Notes under the pieces: generated by a model
The model's database searches: none
What the model was told of the DNA's origin: nothing
The model's input: only the letters and a program-made list of their open reading frames with translations
Shown here: one piece after another, positions 53,018 through 64,000 of the stretch
Numbering within the stretch: position 1 is the stretch's first letter
How the letters are laid out: each line of letters starts with the position of its first letter
Origin: Erysipelotrichales bacterium
GTDB lineage: Bacteria; Bacillota_I; Bacilli_A; RFN20; CAG-826
DNA: 64,000 nucleotides
Reading direction: 5' to 3'
Assembly (NCBI GenBank): GCA_022508535.1
Contig: JAFLUZ010000002.1
Coordinates: 63,379-127,378 of the forward strand
Translations under genes and position numbers: made by a program

Positions 53018-53077
53018 GACACACCTATATATATATAAACAAGTGCCTTCGCTACGCTCGGCATATATAGGTGTGTC
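53018..53077. repeat. 15-bp perfect inverted repeat (gacacacctatatat / atatataggtgtgtc) around a 30-nt GC-rich loop
   Basis: The loop gtgccttcgctacgctcggc is far more GC-rich than the surrounding sequence. Candidate Rep double-strand origin or att core. Confidence 0.6.
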
Positions 53078-53116
53078 ATTTATTTAATGTAATTCATGAA
53101 TTTCTTGTTATTATTT

Positions 53117-53190
53117 AATGTATTGAAAGGTTGAAGTTCACGCCTAATTCGGCTATGTGAACTTTCAACCATTTTTTTAATACATTTTAA
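53117..53190. repeat. second large imperfect hairpin (ggttgaagttcac ... gtgaactttcaacc) with flanking tgtattgaaa / aatacatt arms
   Basis: 13/14-bp stem nested inside a longer imperfect inverted repeat, downstream of the Rep gene. Confidence 0.5.
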
Positions 53191-53273
53191 ATAAATTTTA
53201 CAACGACTAAAAGGGTATAACAGTTATACCCATTTTTTCATATATAAATTAGTTATTTTTTTTTAAATATGCA

Positions 53274-54197
53274 CTAACACGACATCTTTACTAACATATC
53301 ACTATCAATAATATCTACATCATCAAATAAAACATACTTTTTAACAAATTCACCAAACTCACAAAGAATATATTTACTATCTTCTTCATCAAATTTTATA
53401 TACAAAAACGTTGGGATACCCCTAGAATAGAATATTTTTTCATTACTTTTAGAAATATACTTTAACAAATAATTAATAGTTCCATCATGTTTTAAATTTT
53501 TACAATCAATCTCAACAAAATCATTACGTCCAAATCGCTTTTCAAAAAATGTGTTTATATGTGTAATACGCATTTTTTTATCGCTTGTAGAATAATCAAT
53601 CTTATTAATTATCTCACCACGCATTTCACCATTTGGAACATACATTAATCCATGAAAATGTAATCTTCCTTTTAATGACCTTTCAAACACACCCATACAT
53701 CTATAACCATAACGACTATGAAGATTAGAAAAACACTTCTTTAATTTATCAACAAATGATATTTCATCATGTTTATTATCATCATAAGTAAAAGTAACAA
53801 AATAATTCCAAATATTATTTAATGCTTTCTTTCTAAAACGATCAAGACGCGATTTTAATAACTTCGCTTTTGTTTTTAAAAAATTAATAACAACTTTTTC
53901 AGATATATCAGAATCATAATTTTTCAATTCACTTAACATAAAACGTAATCGATCTTTATCACTTACATCTTTTTCAATAGACAACAAATAAATTTCATCT
54001 AAAATATTATCTTCTTCATTTACAATTTTCGCACCACCTCTTTTAACATTACATTTACCATAAGTACGAACAAATTCACTTTCATAATTACGTATAGATT
54101 CTTTTTCTTTTACAACTTCTAAATCCTTTTTATAATAACGGATTGCCACATTGTGAGATCCGTCATTAAAACATCTATATAATGTTTGTGCAGCCAT
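53274..54197 (-). CDS. rolling-circle replication initiator (HUH endonuclease, phiX174-A / superfamily I type)
   Basis: HUH motif GRLHFHGLMYV and a double-tyrosine motif YLLKYISK (Y-x-x-K-Y-x-x-K). Confidence 0.65.
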   Translation of the reverse strand: MAAQTLYRCFNDGSHNVAIRYYKKDLEVVKEKESIRNYESEFVRTYGKCNVKRGGAKIVNEEDNILDEIYLLSIEKDVSDKDRLRFMLSELKNYDSDISEKVVINFLKTKAKLLKSRLDRFRKKALNNIWNYFVTFTYDDNKHDEISFVDKLKKCFSNLHSRYGYRCMGVFERSLKGRLHFHGLMYVPNGEMRGEIINKIDYSTSDKKMRITHINTFFEKRFGRNDFVEIDCKNLKHDGTINYLLKYISKSNEKIFYSRGIPTFLYIKFDEEDSKYILCEFGEFVKKYVLFDDVDIIDSDMLVKMSC

Positions 54198-54392
54198 TTT
54201 ATATTGTCCTTTCTCATCTATTGCTTACTTCTCATAGCGTATTTGTATTGTTGCATATCATATTTATTTATTGTCAAGTGTTGCCCTACGGCGTCTCACG
54301 TCTTACAACGTTTGCCACTTGACAATATAAATAGATATGAGATTTTGGATATAACGCCAATGAGAGGAAACAAATATTATTTTTTTTAATTT

Positions 54393-62033: not shown

Positions 62034-62054
62034 TATAATCACCTCACGATACAA

Positions 62055-63029
62055 TTAAGCGTTATTATCTACAACTAAAAGTTCAATTTTAGTAATTTTA
62101 TATTGATGACCAGTTTGTTCATCAACTTTGTTTTGTAAGAAAAAATTAGTCTCATTTACGGAATACGCATTTTCACTTTCAATATAACTATTAAATACAC
62201 CATCACCATTTCCTACAAATAGACCAAGATTAGAAATACTATCAGTTGATGTAAAAGTAACTTTAATTGATTTAACTAAAGTACAAGTTTCAAATCTTAA
62301 AATAGTACCATCTTGATTAAATGGATATAATCTTACATCTGAATTACTAAAATAAGAAATATACGCTTGATTTTTTTCATAAATAACTTTTATTCCATAT
62401 TTATTAGGTGTTATTCCAAAACCATCAGTAACATCTACTGAATCAACACCGGAACAAATCCCACTACCTTTTGTAATATTTCCGGTAGCAGTTTCCATAG
62501 TTATCCAAATTTCTAATGTTTCTATAAAATAAAGATCATTTTTTAAATCTTGCAATACTTCACCAATTTCATTAATATCATGTTCTTCATCTAAACCAGT
62601 CCAATAAAAGAAAGCACCATTACCGGTATTTCCCCATTCAAACGTTTCATTGCTAAAAGTATTTTCAATATTTTTAGTCTTATCAGTATATGTAATTGTT
62701 TTTTCTATCTTTATACGATAAGCACAACCATAATTAATTGTATAATCATTAAAATAAACCCATTTTGTATCTTCATAAGGATTTAACTCTAACTCATAAT
62801 TAATTCCAGTAACATCTTCAGAAGAAGATTGTTGTAAATAATATTTAATAGTAATATCATCAATTTCTTTTTCTTTATCATTAATTGATAAATTAGAAGA
62901 AACATCATTTGTTGATGAATTATTAGAAACTTTATCATCATTTTTTAAATGACTTAAACCACCAACTAAACCAATACCTAAACCAAAAAACGCAATAGCA
63001 GTTAAAATAACTTTTGTTCTTGATTTCAT
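62055..63029 (-). CDS. secreted repeat-domain protein, homolog of the gene at 38432-39748
   Basis: YELELNPYEDTKWVYFNDYTINYGCAYRIKIE...FEWGNTGNGAFFYWTG matches both repeats of the element A protein. Confidence 0.45.
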   Translation of the reverse strand: MKSRTKVILTAIAFFGLGIGLVGGLSHLKNDDKVSNNSSTNDVSSNLSINDKEKEIDDITIKYYLQQSSSEDVTGINYELELNPYEDTKWVYFNDYTINYGCAYRIKIEKTITYTDKTKNIENTFSNETFEWGNTGNGAFFYWTGLDEEHDINEIGEVLQDLKNDLYFIETLEIWITMETATGNITKGSGICSGVDSVDVTDGFGITPNKYGIKVIYEKNQAYISYFSNSDVRLYPFNQDGTILRFETCTLVKSIKVTFTSTDSISNLGLFVGNGDGVFNSYIESENAYSVNETNFFLQNKVDEQTGHQYKITKIELLVVDNNA

Positions 63030-63039
63030 CCTTTATCAC

Positions 63040-63594
63040 CTATTCCTTTTCTTCGGTATCCTTAATACCTAATTTTGTAAATTTGACAATTTTAGAGGTT
63101 AATTTTTCACCATTTTCATTAGGCAATGAAAGATGATGATTACCACTTTCAATTACCATATAATCTGCACTTTGGATTTTGCTTTCTTCGTCACCATAAG
63201 AAATAACAACGCCACAAGTTCCACCAGTTTCTAAAAACTTATTAAAGTCTTGATATTTTGGTGGAAGTAGATTTTCAAATTCAATAGTGTATGAATCTTT
63301 TTCGTTATATGTAATATAACTTTTCTTAACATCTTCCTTAGGCGATATTCCCGGCCATTTAAAAGGCACAAATGTATTTTCAAATTCTTCATGATCGAAA
63401 TAGAAATAAGCATGAACTAATTGTTCATCTTTAGTTCCATCTATTGTAATTGCAACACGGCTATTATCTACAACTTCAGTGATTCCAAAATCATTAAAAT
63501 CTTTAAATCCATTTGTTAATAACGCTAATCCACCGGCTAAACCTAGAGTTACAAAAATGACTGCAGTTAAAATTACTTTGCCTTTAGTTTTCAT
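63040..63594 (-). CDS. secreted or membrane-anchored small protein (tandem paralog of the partial gene downstream)
   Basis: N-terminal signal/TM VILTAVIFVTLGLAGGLALL; motif GGTCGVVISYGDEES.IQSAD. Confidence 0.4.
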   Translation of the reverse strand: MKTKGKVILTAVIFVTLGLAGGLALLTNGFKDFNDFGITEVVDNSRVAITIDGTKDEQLVHAYFYFDHEEFENTFVPFKWPGISPKEDVKKSYITYNEKDSYTIEFENLLPPKYQDFNKFLETGGTCGVVISYGDEESKIQSADYMVIESGNHHLSLPNENGEKLTSKIVKFTKLGIKDTEEKE

Positions 63595-64000
63595 CAGAAA
63601 TCACATCACTTTTTTCTTCAACTTCATTAGAAGTTGATTCTTTTTTTTCATCTTCTTTGGTTTCATCATCTTCTAAAGTTTCTTTATAAAATTTGACAAT
63701 AGTATCAGTAATATCACCTTTGTTGTGAGTAGGTAATGTTAAATGATGATTACCACTTTCTTCTATAAAGAAGTCTTTACTTTGAATACGACTTTCTTCA
63801 TCACCATAAGAAATAACAACGCCACAAGTTCCACCCTCTTTGATAAATAAACCAAAATCTTCATAACCTAATGGAAGAATAGAAGTTAATTCAATAGTGT
63901 AAGTGCCATCTTCATTGTCAGTAACATAATCGTATCCATCAGTACCGACTACATCCTTTGCAACTATTCCAGGCCATGTTCCAATATTAGAATCAAATTC
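63594..64000 (-). CDS. partial paralog of the gene at 63040-63594 (N-terminus lies beyond the window end)
   Basis: The minus-strand reading frame translates ...WPGIVAKDV...GGTCGVVISYGDEESRIQSKD...; its stop overlaps the ATG of the downstream gene (ATGA). Confidence 0.4.

Follow-up and report, generated by a model that had tools for sequence, protein, structure and literature searches.

A Probable Rolling-Circle, Transposase-Bearing Phage-Like Element with a Conserved Hairpin Candidate Origin in an Erysipelotrichales Bacterium

A stretch of 64,000 nucleotides from a metagenome-assembled genome that NCBI labels as Erysipelotrichales bacterium (assembly GCA_022508535.1, contig JAFLUZ010000002.1, positions 63,379 to 127,378; locus tags J1F32_), hereafter called the window, carries at its right end a complete integrated mobile element of ~16.8 kb, which we designate element B. 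The element occupies positions 51014-64000 of the window and continues to ~67797 in the parent contig. Our preferred explanation, to which we assign a probability of about 0.62, is that element B is a temperate, non-lytic phage-like element combining a rolling-circle cassette, built around an HUH initiator (Rep) and a conserved hairpin, with a transposition module and a membrane module. An original prediction, made from the letters of the window, had recognised here a Rep-driven relative of a second element of the same window (element A) and had regarded the combination of a rolling-circle Rep with large envelope-like proteins as unusual, a judgement that the comparisons reported below uphold.

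The window uses the standard genetic code and has a GC content of ~29%; all open reading frames (ORFs) of note from position 53274 to its end lie on the minus strand. The parent contig (L001; ENA ERZ27293322, 334 kb) shares 10,961 nt with the window without a single mismatch and extends it rightward, and all coordinates above 64000, marked as extended, were read from this contig. Related loci, designated by L-numbers, were fetched via the neighbouring ATPase and via homologues of the Rep. The Pfam scan covered 20 proteins of element B, and the sets searched for the flanking 26-bp repeat and for the empty-site pattern of locus L023 were IMG/VR and the JGI metagenomes.

Extent and Termini of Element B

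Element B is framed by two identical copies of an exact 26-bp direct repeat (ATCTTTTTTTGTTACATTTCGTTATT), with flanks that diverge abruptly on both sides. The copy on the side of the rve transposase gene lies at 50988-51013, where it coincides in part with the terminator of a host CarD-like gene (3' arm and T-tract), and the second copy is found in the parent contig at 67798-67823 (extended). Directly inside these repeats are imperfect terminal inverted repeats of ~25 bp: the one on the rve side occupies 51014-51036 (plus strand CTTAATTTGTCAAGGACGTTTCT) and matches the other end at ~17 of 23 positions, the reverse-complement motif of this end being ..CCTTGACAAATTAAG, and its counterpart, ..GACACGTCCATTGTATAGTTACA, ends at 67797 (extended). 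Extension of the sequence beyond 64 kb thus supplies the right boundary, at ~67797, together with the direct repeat that follows it. The left boundary differs from that of the original prediction, in which the element began at the hairpins next to the Rep gene, for element B runs 2 kb further left, to 51014.

The same arrangement recurs in relatives. The end motif on the side of the gene for a conserved 122-aa protein has the form TGT..CAAT(T)GA(T/C)GTGTC and that on the rve side the form ..(C/A)TTGACAA(A/T).., with (C/A)TTGACAA(A/T)T kept in L006, L023, L015, L018, L017, L028, L030 and L032. Two other complete relatives are likewise framed by direct repeats, of 27 bp in L023 (11.1 kb apart) and of 28 bp in L006 (14.5 kb apart), and the repeats of the three insertions (26, 27 and 28 bp) are unrelated in sequence. 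Contig L028 (14,509 nt; without terminal overlap) begins with TGTTTTTTTACAATAG and ends with GATTGACAATTTAACA, which are exactly the two element termini (TGT.. / ..ACA), and L030 and L032 hold the same element, with identical Rep, in flanks that differ from the first base past ..TTGACAATTTATCA. The contig ends of L028 and the differing flanks of L030 and L032 therefore fix the element ends to the base. The complete elements measured 11.1-16.8 kb.

Inverted repeats accompanied by direct repeats of fixed length and unrelated sequence argue for DDE transposition with a target duplication of ~26 bp, and the sequence features together point to the direct repeats being a target-site duplication of this kind. 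Because the repeats are ~28 bp long, XerCD/dif-type integration in the style of CTX-phi was also considered; it was rejected, the repeats being unrelated in sequence, not palindromic and located at intergenic or terminator sites. No direct repeats were found around L017/L033 or around L030.

In two of the three insertions (L023 1252-1278 / 12386-12440; window 50968-51013), the target overlaps a terminator-like hairpin that belongs to a host gene, and the transposase may prefer such hairpins as targets. Several metagenome contigs stop at or close to the origin region or exactly at the termini, as in L021, which stops 19 nt past the Rep gene, and in L028, which corresponds to the element exactly; such breaks suggest that the assembly graph branches there, either because the element sits at several sites or because different forms of it coexist. 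Just left of the insertion site, the window encodes at 47443-49392 a host lipoprotein-like protein of 649 aa with four tandem repeats of ~115 aa, labelled CBM26 (starch-binding) in the precomputed Pfam annotation of the contig.

The Rep Protein and Its Candidate Origin

The gene at 53274-54197 (minus strand) encodes the HUH rolling-circle initiator of 307 aa that the original prediction had identified by HFHGLMY and YLLKYISK, both of which are present. Its motifs are FVTFTY, HFHGL and Y243-x-x-K246-Y247-x-x-K250. The protein matches Pfam PF23343 (REP_ORF2-G2P) with 42.9 bits against a cut-off of 27.8, besides a weak match to Phage_GPA, and its predicted structure adopts an HUH endonuclease fold. 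The homologue search listed 388 proteins, and PF23343 is carried by 120 of the 120 displayed. In an alignment of 21 sequences with 39-58% identity, the residues F133/T135/Y138, H180/H182 and Y243/K246/Y247/K250 are invariant, including the catalytic tyrosines, and the gene is not a pseudogene. By profile, motifs and predicted fold alike, the protein is a true HUH initiator of the two-tyrosine type and is intact. Its named relatives among deposited phages are limited to gpII of Xanthomonas filamentous phages and VP4/Rep of microviruses, with 22-31% identity and marginal E-values. Element B has a sense-strand GC skew of 0.29 and its Rep gene one of 0.46, compared with 0.08 for element A and 0.06-0.18 for host genes, which is consistent with element B spending time as single-stranded DNA (ssDNA), if not proof of it.

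Next to the Rep gene lies hairpin H1 (53018-53077, minus strand), the candidate double-strand origin. The inverted-repeat scan returned arms at 53018-53032 and 53063-53077 that are 15 nt long, 100% complementary and spaced by 30 nt, and the loop is GC-rich (GCCGAGCGTAGCGAAGGCAC...) against a background of ~25% GC, exactly as had been predicted. Within the 15-bp outer stem are a GC-rich inner mini-hairpin and unpaired CACTTGTTTA, after which comes TAATGCTCA. Of the Rep-bearing relatives inspected, most have one structure of this design after the Rep gene: ten loci (L004, L006, L008, L009 [weak], L010, L015, L016, L017, L018 and L023), in which Rep identity is 32-57%, local GC is 39-72% and rve may be present or absent. 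The outer stem has 10-17 bp and encloses a GC-rich mini-hairpin and CTTGTT(A/C/T)A in unpaired form (CTCGTATA in L017); behind its 3' arm, (C)TAATGCTCA is frequent. Between loci the sequences of the stems are unrelated, for example GACACACCTATATAT, GGCGTGTGCTTGTCT, GTGCGTTAGTAT and GGCACGCCCATGC.

A covariance model of H1 built from six loci, with the window left out, matches the window at 53008-53079 (minus strand) with 56 bits (E ~1e-13). It gives one sense-strand match in each of the nine Rep-bearing sources searched, the L006 hairpin that we saw by eye not being recovered. Neither the Rep-less L005 and L007 nor element A nor the phages L2, SpV1 and MV-L1 gave a match. In the eight-sequence alignment, which was fitted to the model and so favours pairing, 93% of the cells are paired and 14 of 16 pairs changed on both sides, a result reached by 0 of 500 shuffles and compared with 16-62% in slid controls. 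(MAFFT misaligned the stems, and the covariance-model alignment was used instead.) The perfect stems returned by the plain inverted-repeat scan, which is independent of the model, lead to the same conclusion. Since H1 is present in Rep elements without rve (L004, L008 and L010), it goes with the Rep and not with the transposase. The whole Rep-proximal intergenic region of 275 nt folds as DNA at -44.6 kcal/mol, versus -19.6 +/- 3.2 for shuffles (z = -7.9), and no Rfam family matches the hairpin region.

The CTTGTT of H1 is unpaired and lies on the sense strand. The nick sites of phiX174 and pC194 are CTTG^ATA, and in the plectrovirus SVTS2 ACTTGATTAAC stands immediately 3' of an annotated GC-rich stem-loop. 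On the basis of this likeness and of the SVTS2 parallel, H1 is accepted as the best candidate for the double-strand origin, an assignment that the sequence comparisons strongly support, and Rep would be expected to nick there. The original prediction had offered the hairpins as candidate double-strand origins or integration sites; the former part is strongly supported for H1, which is conserved, linked to Rep and endowed with CTTGTT, and the latter is set aside, the hairpins being internal to the element.

Hairpin H2 (53120-53183, minus strand) has a core stem at 53129-53141 / 53157-53170 (GGTTGAAGTTCAC / GTGAACTTTCAACC), in which 13 of 14 positions pair as had been predicted, within a longer imperfect stem. 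Its loop, AGCCGAATTAGGCG, conforms to a family consensus of ~AGCGGTTTAGC, and counterparts occur 30-40 nt upstream of H1 in relatives. An H2-type hairpin with the loop AAGCGGTTTAGCGG is also seen in L005 (12770-12830), after the ATPase gene and next to host Ku and LigD-like genes. As L005 is Rep-less, the role of H2 may lie not in binding Rep but in strand conversion, packaging or termination; we regard it as a candidate single-strand origin or packaging signal, or as what may be a transcription terminator. A separate hairpin resembling a bidirectional terminator is located directly after the Rep gene (53213-53231). Hairpin H3 (54260-54336, minus strand), between the ATPase gene and Rep, has 21-nt arms with 81% complementarity, GCCGTAGGG in its loop and a folding z of -4.5. 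In L006, L015 and L028 the hairpin that contains the GCCGTAGGG motif lies downstream of Rep, versus upstream in the window, so that the motif has moved relative to Rep.

Transposase and Cargo

The terminal gene of element B (51208-52179, minus strand) encodes an IS481-like DDE transposase of 323 aa from the start chosen by the gene callers, the ORF extending to 52224; a terminator-like hairpin lies downstream of it (51094-51112, minus strand). The protein matches the Pfam domain rve with 62.7 bits, as well as rve_3 and the helix-turn-helix (HTH) domain HTH_32, and its best NCBIfam model is IS481 (182 bits, E 1e-53, under the family cut-off of 224). It is 64% identical to the gene in the same position of L006, and the order ATPase, Rep, hairpins, rve, element end is repeated in L006, L015, L016/L028, L018, L023, L029 and L030, among which are six other distinct elements. 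From this terminal position in relatives, and from the termini that enclose the gene, we take the rve protein to be the element's own integration enzyme.

Between H1 and the transposase gene lies a Zn-ribbon/nuclease-like gene (52252-52998, plus strand), the only element B gene on the opposite strand. Its only matches are to DZR_2, a zinc ribbon, in Pfam (weak) and to the PHROG 9019 'Holliday junction resolvase' family (E 1e-5). It has no counterpart at that position in L015, L016, L018 and L023 and no match in L006, and its skews are unlike those of the rest of the element. Because the position is empty in relatives, the strand is opposite and the skews differ, the gene is a local insertion, namely cargo specific to the element B copy. 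The earlier proposal that rve and this gene were both cargo or a separate insertion thus applies to the Zn-ribbon gene and fails for rve, which is a conserved terminal gene inside the repeats; of the Zn-ribbon/DUF559-like label, the zinc ribbon finds weak backing and DUF559 has no Pfam support.

Other cargo is seen between the conserved genes of relatives: PcfK and PcfJ, known from conjugative elements, in L029 (1557-3249), an RNase_T-family exonuclease in L023 (9477-9995) and an N6/N4 DNA methyltransferase in L028 (7479-8210).

Membrane Module and Remaining Genes

The hallmark gene of the element family is that of a 716-aa membrane ATPase (54393-56543, minus strand), which combines an N-terminal multi-helix membrane domain of ~270 aa with a P-loop (GKGKTT) ATPase of the ASCE class and a C-terminal domain. 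At least 1,975 relatives were found in the metagenome protein search; they are without a Pfam domain, and the few that are named are called 'hypothetical protein'. The ATPase has no PHROG or NCBIfam match, and IMG/VR holds one Rep locus and two ATPase loci of the family.

Large surface-type proteins are encoded upstream on the same minus strand. The envelope/adhesin-like protein of 747 aa (754 from a TTG start; 59790-62033) has, besides a signal peptide, a membrane anchor at its C terminus and a basic tail. A word-indexed search gave no homologue for it, and a full HMMER search of 1.8 billion representatives gave 12 remote relatives, most of which match the C-terminal third only; the N-terminal two-thirds have few or no detectable relatives. 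Such a pattern of conservation, as far as sequence comparison indicates, is typical of receptor-binding proteins. Next to it are a 324-aa N-terminally anchored protein (62055-63029), which shares a domain with a 438-aa protein of element A, and the tandem paralogs that had been predicted to run off the window: an N-terminally anchored protein of 184 aa (63040-63594) and a second paralog, 54% identical to it, which starts at 63584, is cut by the window end at 64000 and in full has 211 aa, ending at 64219 on the parent contig.

The remaining genes are smaller and, in the window, are likewise on the minus strand. Five small ORFs (57, 75, 135, 117 and 72 aa; 56585-58013) have no family match. They are followed by a 277-aa protein (58006-58839) with an N-terminal membrane helix, a zinc ribbon and DUF3850 (Pfam 60.9 bits; PHROG 986), DUF3850 proteins also adjoining the ATPase or Rep in L006 and L016; by a 119-aa protein with an N-terminal membrane helix (58853-59212), conserved in L005 and L006; and by a 130-aa basic protein of net charge +14 (59313-59705). 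Past the second paralog, ten consecutive small basic ORFs of 50-115 aa are found at L001 6537-9369 (extended ~64226-67058). All are rich in K, R, N and Y; the net charge of the 50-aa ORF is +5, and that of the other nine lies between +12 and +15. Pfam and PHROG gave no match for any of them, and L006 encodes a relative of one (58% identity). These proteins may be DNA-condensing. The last gene before the far inverted repeat encodes the conserved 122-aa protein (67286-67654, extended).

Element A and the Exchange of Replication Modules

Element A (window 28549-42162) has the appearance of a whole prophage-like element. Its tyrosine integrase gene (28549-29607) adjoins tRNA-Asn and tRNA-Glu genes (28302-28462), and it further encodes a DnaC/IstB-like ATPase (32432-33232), a divergent HTH repressor-like gene (41797-42162), a 737-aa membrane ATPase and a 750-aa protein with signal peptide and C-terminal anchor. 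The claim that elements A and B have a membrane module in common is borne out by two matches, of the 716-aa ATPase of B to the 737-aa ATPase of A (21% identity over 582 aa, E 3e-23) and of the 324-aa protein of B to the 438-aa protein of A (66% identity over a 116-aa domain). The two envelope-like proteins of ~750 aa show no pairwise similarity, the sole link between them being a weak profile match of 28.9 bits with high compositional bias.

The ATPase is accompanied by different replication and integration genes in different loci. It occurs with Rep and rve in the window and in L006, L015, L016/L028, L017, L018, L023, L029 and L030; with Rep, and a tyrosine integrase elsewhere in the locus, in L004 and L009; with a tyrosine integrase and no Rep in L007; and with a DnaC-like ATPase and a tyrosine integrase beside tRNA-Asn/tRNA-Glu in element A. 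Locus L004 is GenBank MT835493.1 ('Bacteriophage sp.', human faeces, Mexico), the sole deposited 'phage' record with the ATPase (42%) and the Rep (36%). It is an unannotated contig of 57 kb that also has a tyrosine integrase and host-looking genes, and hence is probably a prophage in host DNA.

Comparison with Known Systems

The closest known analogues of element B are the Plectroviridae, nearest to it in logic, and the Plasmaviridae. The former (Tubulavirales; SpV1-R8A2B, a Vespertiliovirus, and SVTS2, a Suturavirus) resemble it in having hosts among Bacilli/Mollicutes and, in both records, all annotated genes on one strand. In SpV1, ORF1 (715 aa) has a signal peptide and a C-terminal anchor, ORF2 an N-terminal membrane domain and a P-loop, and ORF3 is an rve transposase; the possibility that ORF2 might be a Rep was rejected, since it is a membrane-domain-plus-P-loop protein. 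The Rep of SVTS2 has FLTLTY, HFH and YLAKYIVK (YxxKY), with a weak Rep motif match to element B (E 7e-4), and the SVTS2 genome shows a GC-rich stem-loop followed by ACTTGAT. According to the ICTV, vespertilioviruses carry a transposase instead of a Rep, and the SpV1 genome is a circular transposition intermediate (PMC8295915). Plectroviruses thus have either a Rep or a transposase, whereas element B has both. Moreover, their genomes are circular ssDNA of 4.5-8.3 kb in rod-shaped particles, whereas the elements considered here span 11-17 kb, element B being two to three times the plectrovirus size; the SpV1 transposase is IS30-like and that of element B IS481-like; element B is without a recognisable major coat protein and its host uses the standard genetic code; and its ATPase, with 716 aa, has a much larger membrane domain and a C-terminal domain.

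Acholeplasma virus L2 of the Plasmaviridae is temperate and non-lytic, has ~12 kb and ORFs on one strand and infects a related host group. Its ORF13 is a 738-aa envelope precursor with a signal peptide, ORF14 a second putative envelope protein and ORF3 a P-loop protein. In contrast to element B with its Rep and DDE transposase, L2 replicates bidirectionally from DnaA-box origins via the host replisome and has no HUH Rep, in agreement with the original prediction. L2 also inserts in tRNA genes by a tyrosine recombinase, whereas element B is intergenic, at a terminator; element A, with its tyrosine integrase beside tRNA genes, fits this mode and most closely mirrors the L2 layout and gene order. 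Homology to L2 was rejected except for the element A integrase, to which L2 ORF5 provides the sole L2 match (E 5e-7).

Three further analogies are of a more general kind. Pleolipovirus gene content includes a membrane/spike/NTPase module. In the archaeal Pleolipoviridae, one such module is combined with alternative replication modules, a rolling-circle Rep or others, in ssDNA or double-stranded DNA (dsDNA) genomes of 7-17 kb, a pattern that elements A and B repeat; these viruses differ in having archaeal hosts and neither a DDE transposase nor terminal inverted repeats, and the likeness is meant as one of logic. IS481 insertion sequences and copy-out-paste-in transposons share with element B an HTH plus rve DDE enzyme, ends of the form TGT...ACA and flanking direct repeats; a circular intermediate whose ends abut would be a natural substrate. 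They differ from the present elements, the unit here being 11-17 kb with ~25-30 genes and its own replication origin, the duplication 26-28 bp and the NCBIfam score 182 versus 224. Finally, the initiators of phiX174 (gpA) and pC194 resemble the Rep in the HUH motif, in two tyrosines three residues apart on a helix (YxxKY) and in a CTTG-TT near CTTG^ATA, but the candidate origin of element B is embedded in a conserved double hairpin.

Proposed Life Cycle and Rival Explanations

A life cycle for element B as a temperate, non-lytic phage-like element, as opposed to a plasmid or an insertion sequence, may be outlined as follows. Rep would nick the sense strand at the unpaired CTTG/TT of H1, acting as double-strand origin, and spin off single-stranded circles, for which H2 and/or H3 could provide the single-strand origin or packaging signal. 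Starting from the double-stranded circle, the transposase would link both element ends to a target whose strands are cut ~26 bp apart, so that the replicative circle might double as transposition intermediate, as proposed for SpV1 plectroviruses. The membrane module would export or wrap the DNA at the cell membrane, either by extrusion in plectrovirus fashion or by budding in plasmavirus fashion. On this outline the element would also be excised and form virions.

Several observations weigh against this explanation. No virion, capsid or major-coat protein could be identified, the structural candidates having no PHROG or Pfam match and the small membrane-helix proteins (119 aa; 76 aa in element A) showing a layout not typical of coat proteins. 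SpV1 proteins have no detectable similarity to those of element B, the sequence link to plectroviruses being limited to the weak SVTS2 Rep motif match, and none of the element B proteins compared matched L2 by BLASTP or hhalign. With regard to mobility, the contigs with the exact CarD-like and PNP neighbours all hold element B, so that the empty site, expected in the form GCTGATCTTTTTTTGTTACATTTCGTTATTTAATGGC with one copy of the 26-mer, was not encountered among them; the 26-bp repeat and the L023 empty-site pattern had no match in IMG/VR or the JGI metagenomes, nor had end-to-end patterns of the predicted circular junction (..TTGACAAATTAAG joined to TGTAACTATACAATGG.., with a spacer of 0-30 nt) in IMG/VR. 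The complete copy L030 is without a direct repeat, its flanks of ~70 nt on each side perhaps being chimeric, from different copies. The target duplication of the IS481 family is 4-15 bp (ISfinder family descriptions), far exceeded by the 26 bp found here. As to the hairpins, the pairing count of H1 is subject to the fitting mentioned above, H2 is followed by a T-run on the plus strand and could also act as a terminator, and no Rep or H1 was found in L005, yet that locus has an H2-like hairpin.

Among the rival explanations, a non-viral integrative element spreading in a conjugation-like manner is unlikely but stays a real alternative, because the fold of the ATPase does not discriminate between the two readings. 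Rep would then be a relaxase acting at H1 as origin of transfer (oriT), the ATPase a translocase or coupling protein of the FtsK/TcpA/TraB type and the surface proteins mating adhesins. HUH Reps do act as relaxases in integrative and conjugative or integrative and mobilizable elements (ICEs/IMEs) of Gram-positive bacteria (e.g. PMC7563843), and this possibility would accommodate the PcfK and PcfJ genes of the L029 variant, the failure to identify a coat protein and the near absence of the family from IMG/VR; a single-ATPase transfer system is also compatible with a distant translocase. Yet the 20 proteins scanned contain no Pfam domain for a VirB4-type ATPase, coupling protein, VirB6, cell-wall hydrolase, type IV secretion system (T4SS) component or relaxase, the ATPase scores equally well against Zot and RecA, PF23343 is of phage (microvirus/inovirus) type with filamentous-phage gpII and microvirus VP4 as the nearest named relatives, and the one-strand layout, small genes and strong sense-strand GC skew are like those of ssDNA phages. 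A decaying prophage remnant that is no longer mobile is improbable. The exact copy is confined to one host lineage, three of three contigs with the neighbouring CarD-like gene include the element and a foreign gene separates H1 from rve, but every ORF examined is intact, as are the catalytic residues of Rep, the 26-bp repeats are identical and close relatives occupy different sites in different samples.

The hairpins might alternatively be ordinary terminators or an RNA regulatory structure, such as a leader of the transposase mRNA, rather than a DNA origin. Such a role would suit the T-run after H2, its resemblance to a bidirectional terminator in some relatives and its counterpart in the Rep-less L005, as well as the position of H1 45-330 nt upstream of the rve start in most relatives. 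We nevertheless hold it to be improbable for H1, which has a structured loop of 30 nt and no T-run, was not called by the terminator scan, is found in Rep elements without rve and is absent from Rep-less relatives and from element A; a separate terminator (53213-53231) already follows Rep, the unpaired CTTGTT is like HUH nick sites and the Rfam search gave no match. No strain that lacks the element was found for comparison. The layout in which the element starts at the hairpins (53018), with rve and the nuclease gene as unrelated insertion or cargo, drew on the Zn-ribbon gene, which breaks the array on the opposite strand, and on the fact that rve transposases usually belong to autonomous insertion sequences. 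It has become very improbable: in six other distinct elements rve likewise comes last, behind Rep and H1; no pair of inverted repeats surrounds this gene on its own; both the inverted repeats and the 26-bp direct repeats take in the whole element along with it; and contig L028 ends exactly at those termini.

Significance

Element B adds a new variant to the rolling-circle phage-like elements of Bacilli that bear a transposase, and the family to which it belongs is large, uncharacterised and nearly lacking from IMG/VR. To our knowledge, cultured phages of the Mollicutes/Erysipelotrichia branch that are non-tailed and non-lytic are limited to L2 and a handful of plectroviruses. We tentatively suggest, as a possibility that goes beyond the reading of element B itself, that this element and its relatives form a lineage of ssDNA viruses, temperate and membrane-associated, that is abundant yet so far unrecognised in gut Bacillota (Erysipelotrichales, other Bacilli and Christensenellales-like Clostridia). 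Such a lineage would bridge plectroviruses and plasmaviruses, with a phiX-like Rep at a double-hairpin origin, integration as a giant transposon by an IS481-like DDE enzyme with ~26-bp duplication and a membrane module exchanged between an ssDNA lifestyle, based on Rep, and a dsDNA lifestyle, based on a DnaC-like protein and a tyrosine integrase.

If element B is viral, virus-detection pipelines at present miss thousands of its relatives in the gut metagenomes of humans and animals, these having no PHROG or Pfam matches and almost no entries in IMG/VR. Element B offers for their study a Rep, a candidate nick site (CTTG/TT in H1) at nucleotide resolution and ends known to the base (TGT...ACA). 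A DDE transposase that apparently duplicates ~26 bp of its target, a length not described for IS481-like enzymes, would represent a new geometry for rve-type enzymes. In a single genome, one membrane module is found with a rolling-circle cassette in element B and with a DnaC-like/tyrosine-integrase cassette in element A, a clear natural case of replication-module swapping, which bears on the exchange of morphogenetic genes between ssDNA and dsDNA viruses; if the suggested lineage is real, it would be a bacterial counterpart of the archaeal pleolipoviruses.

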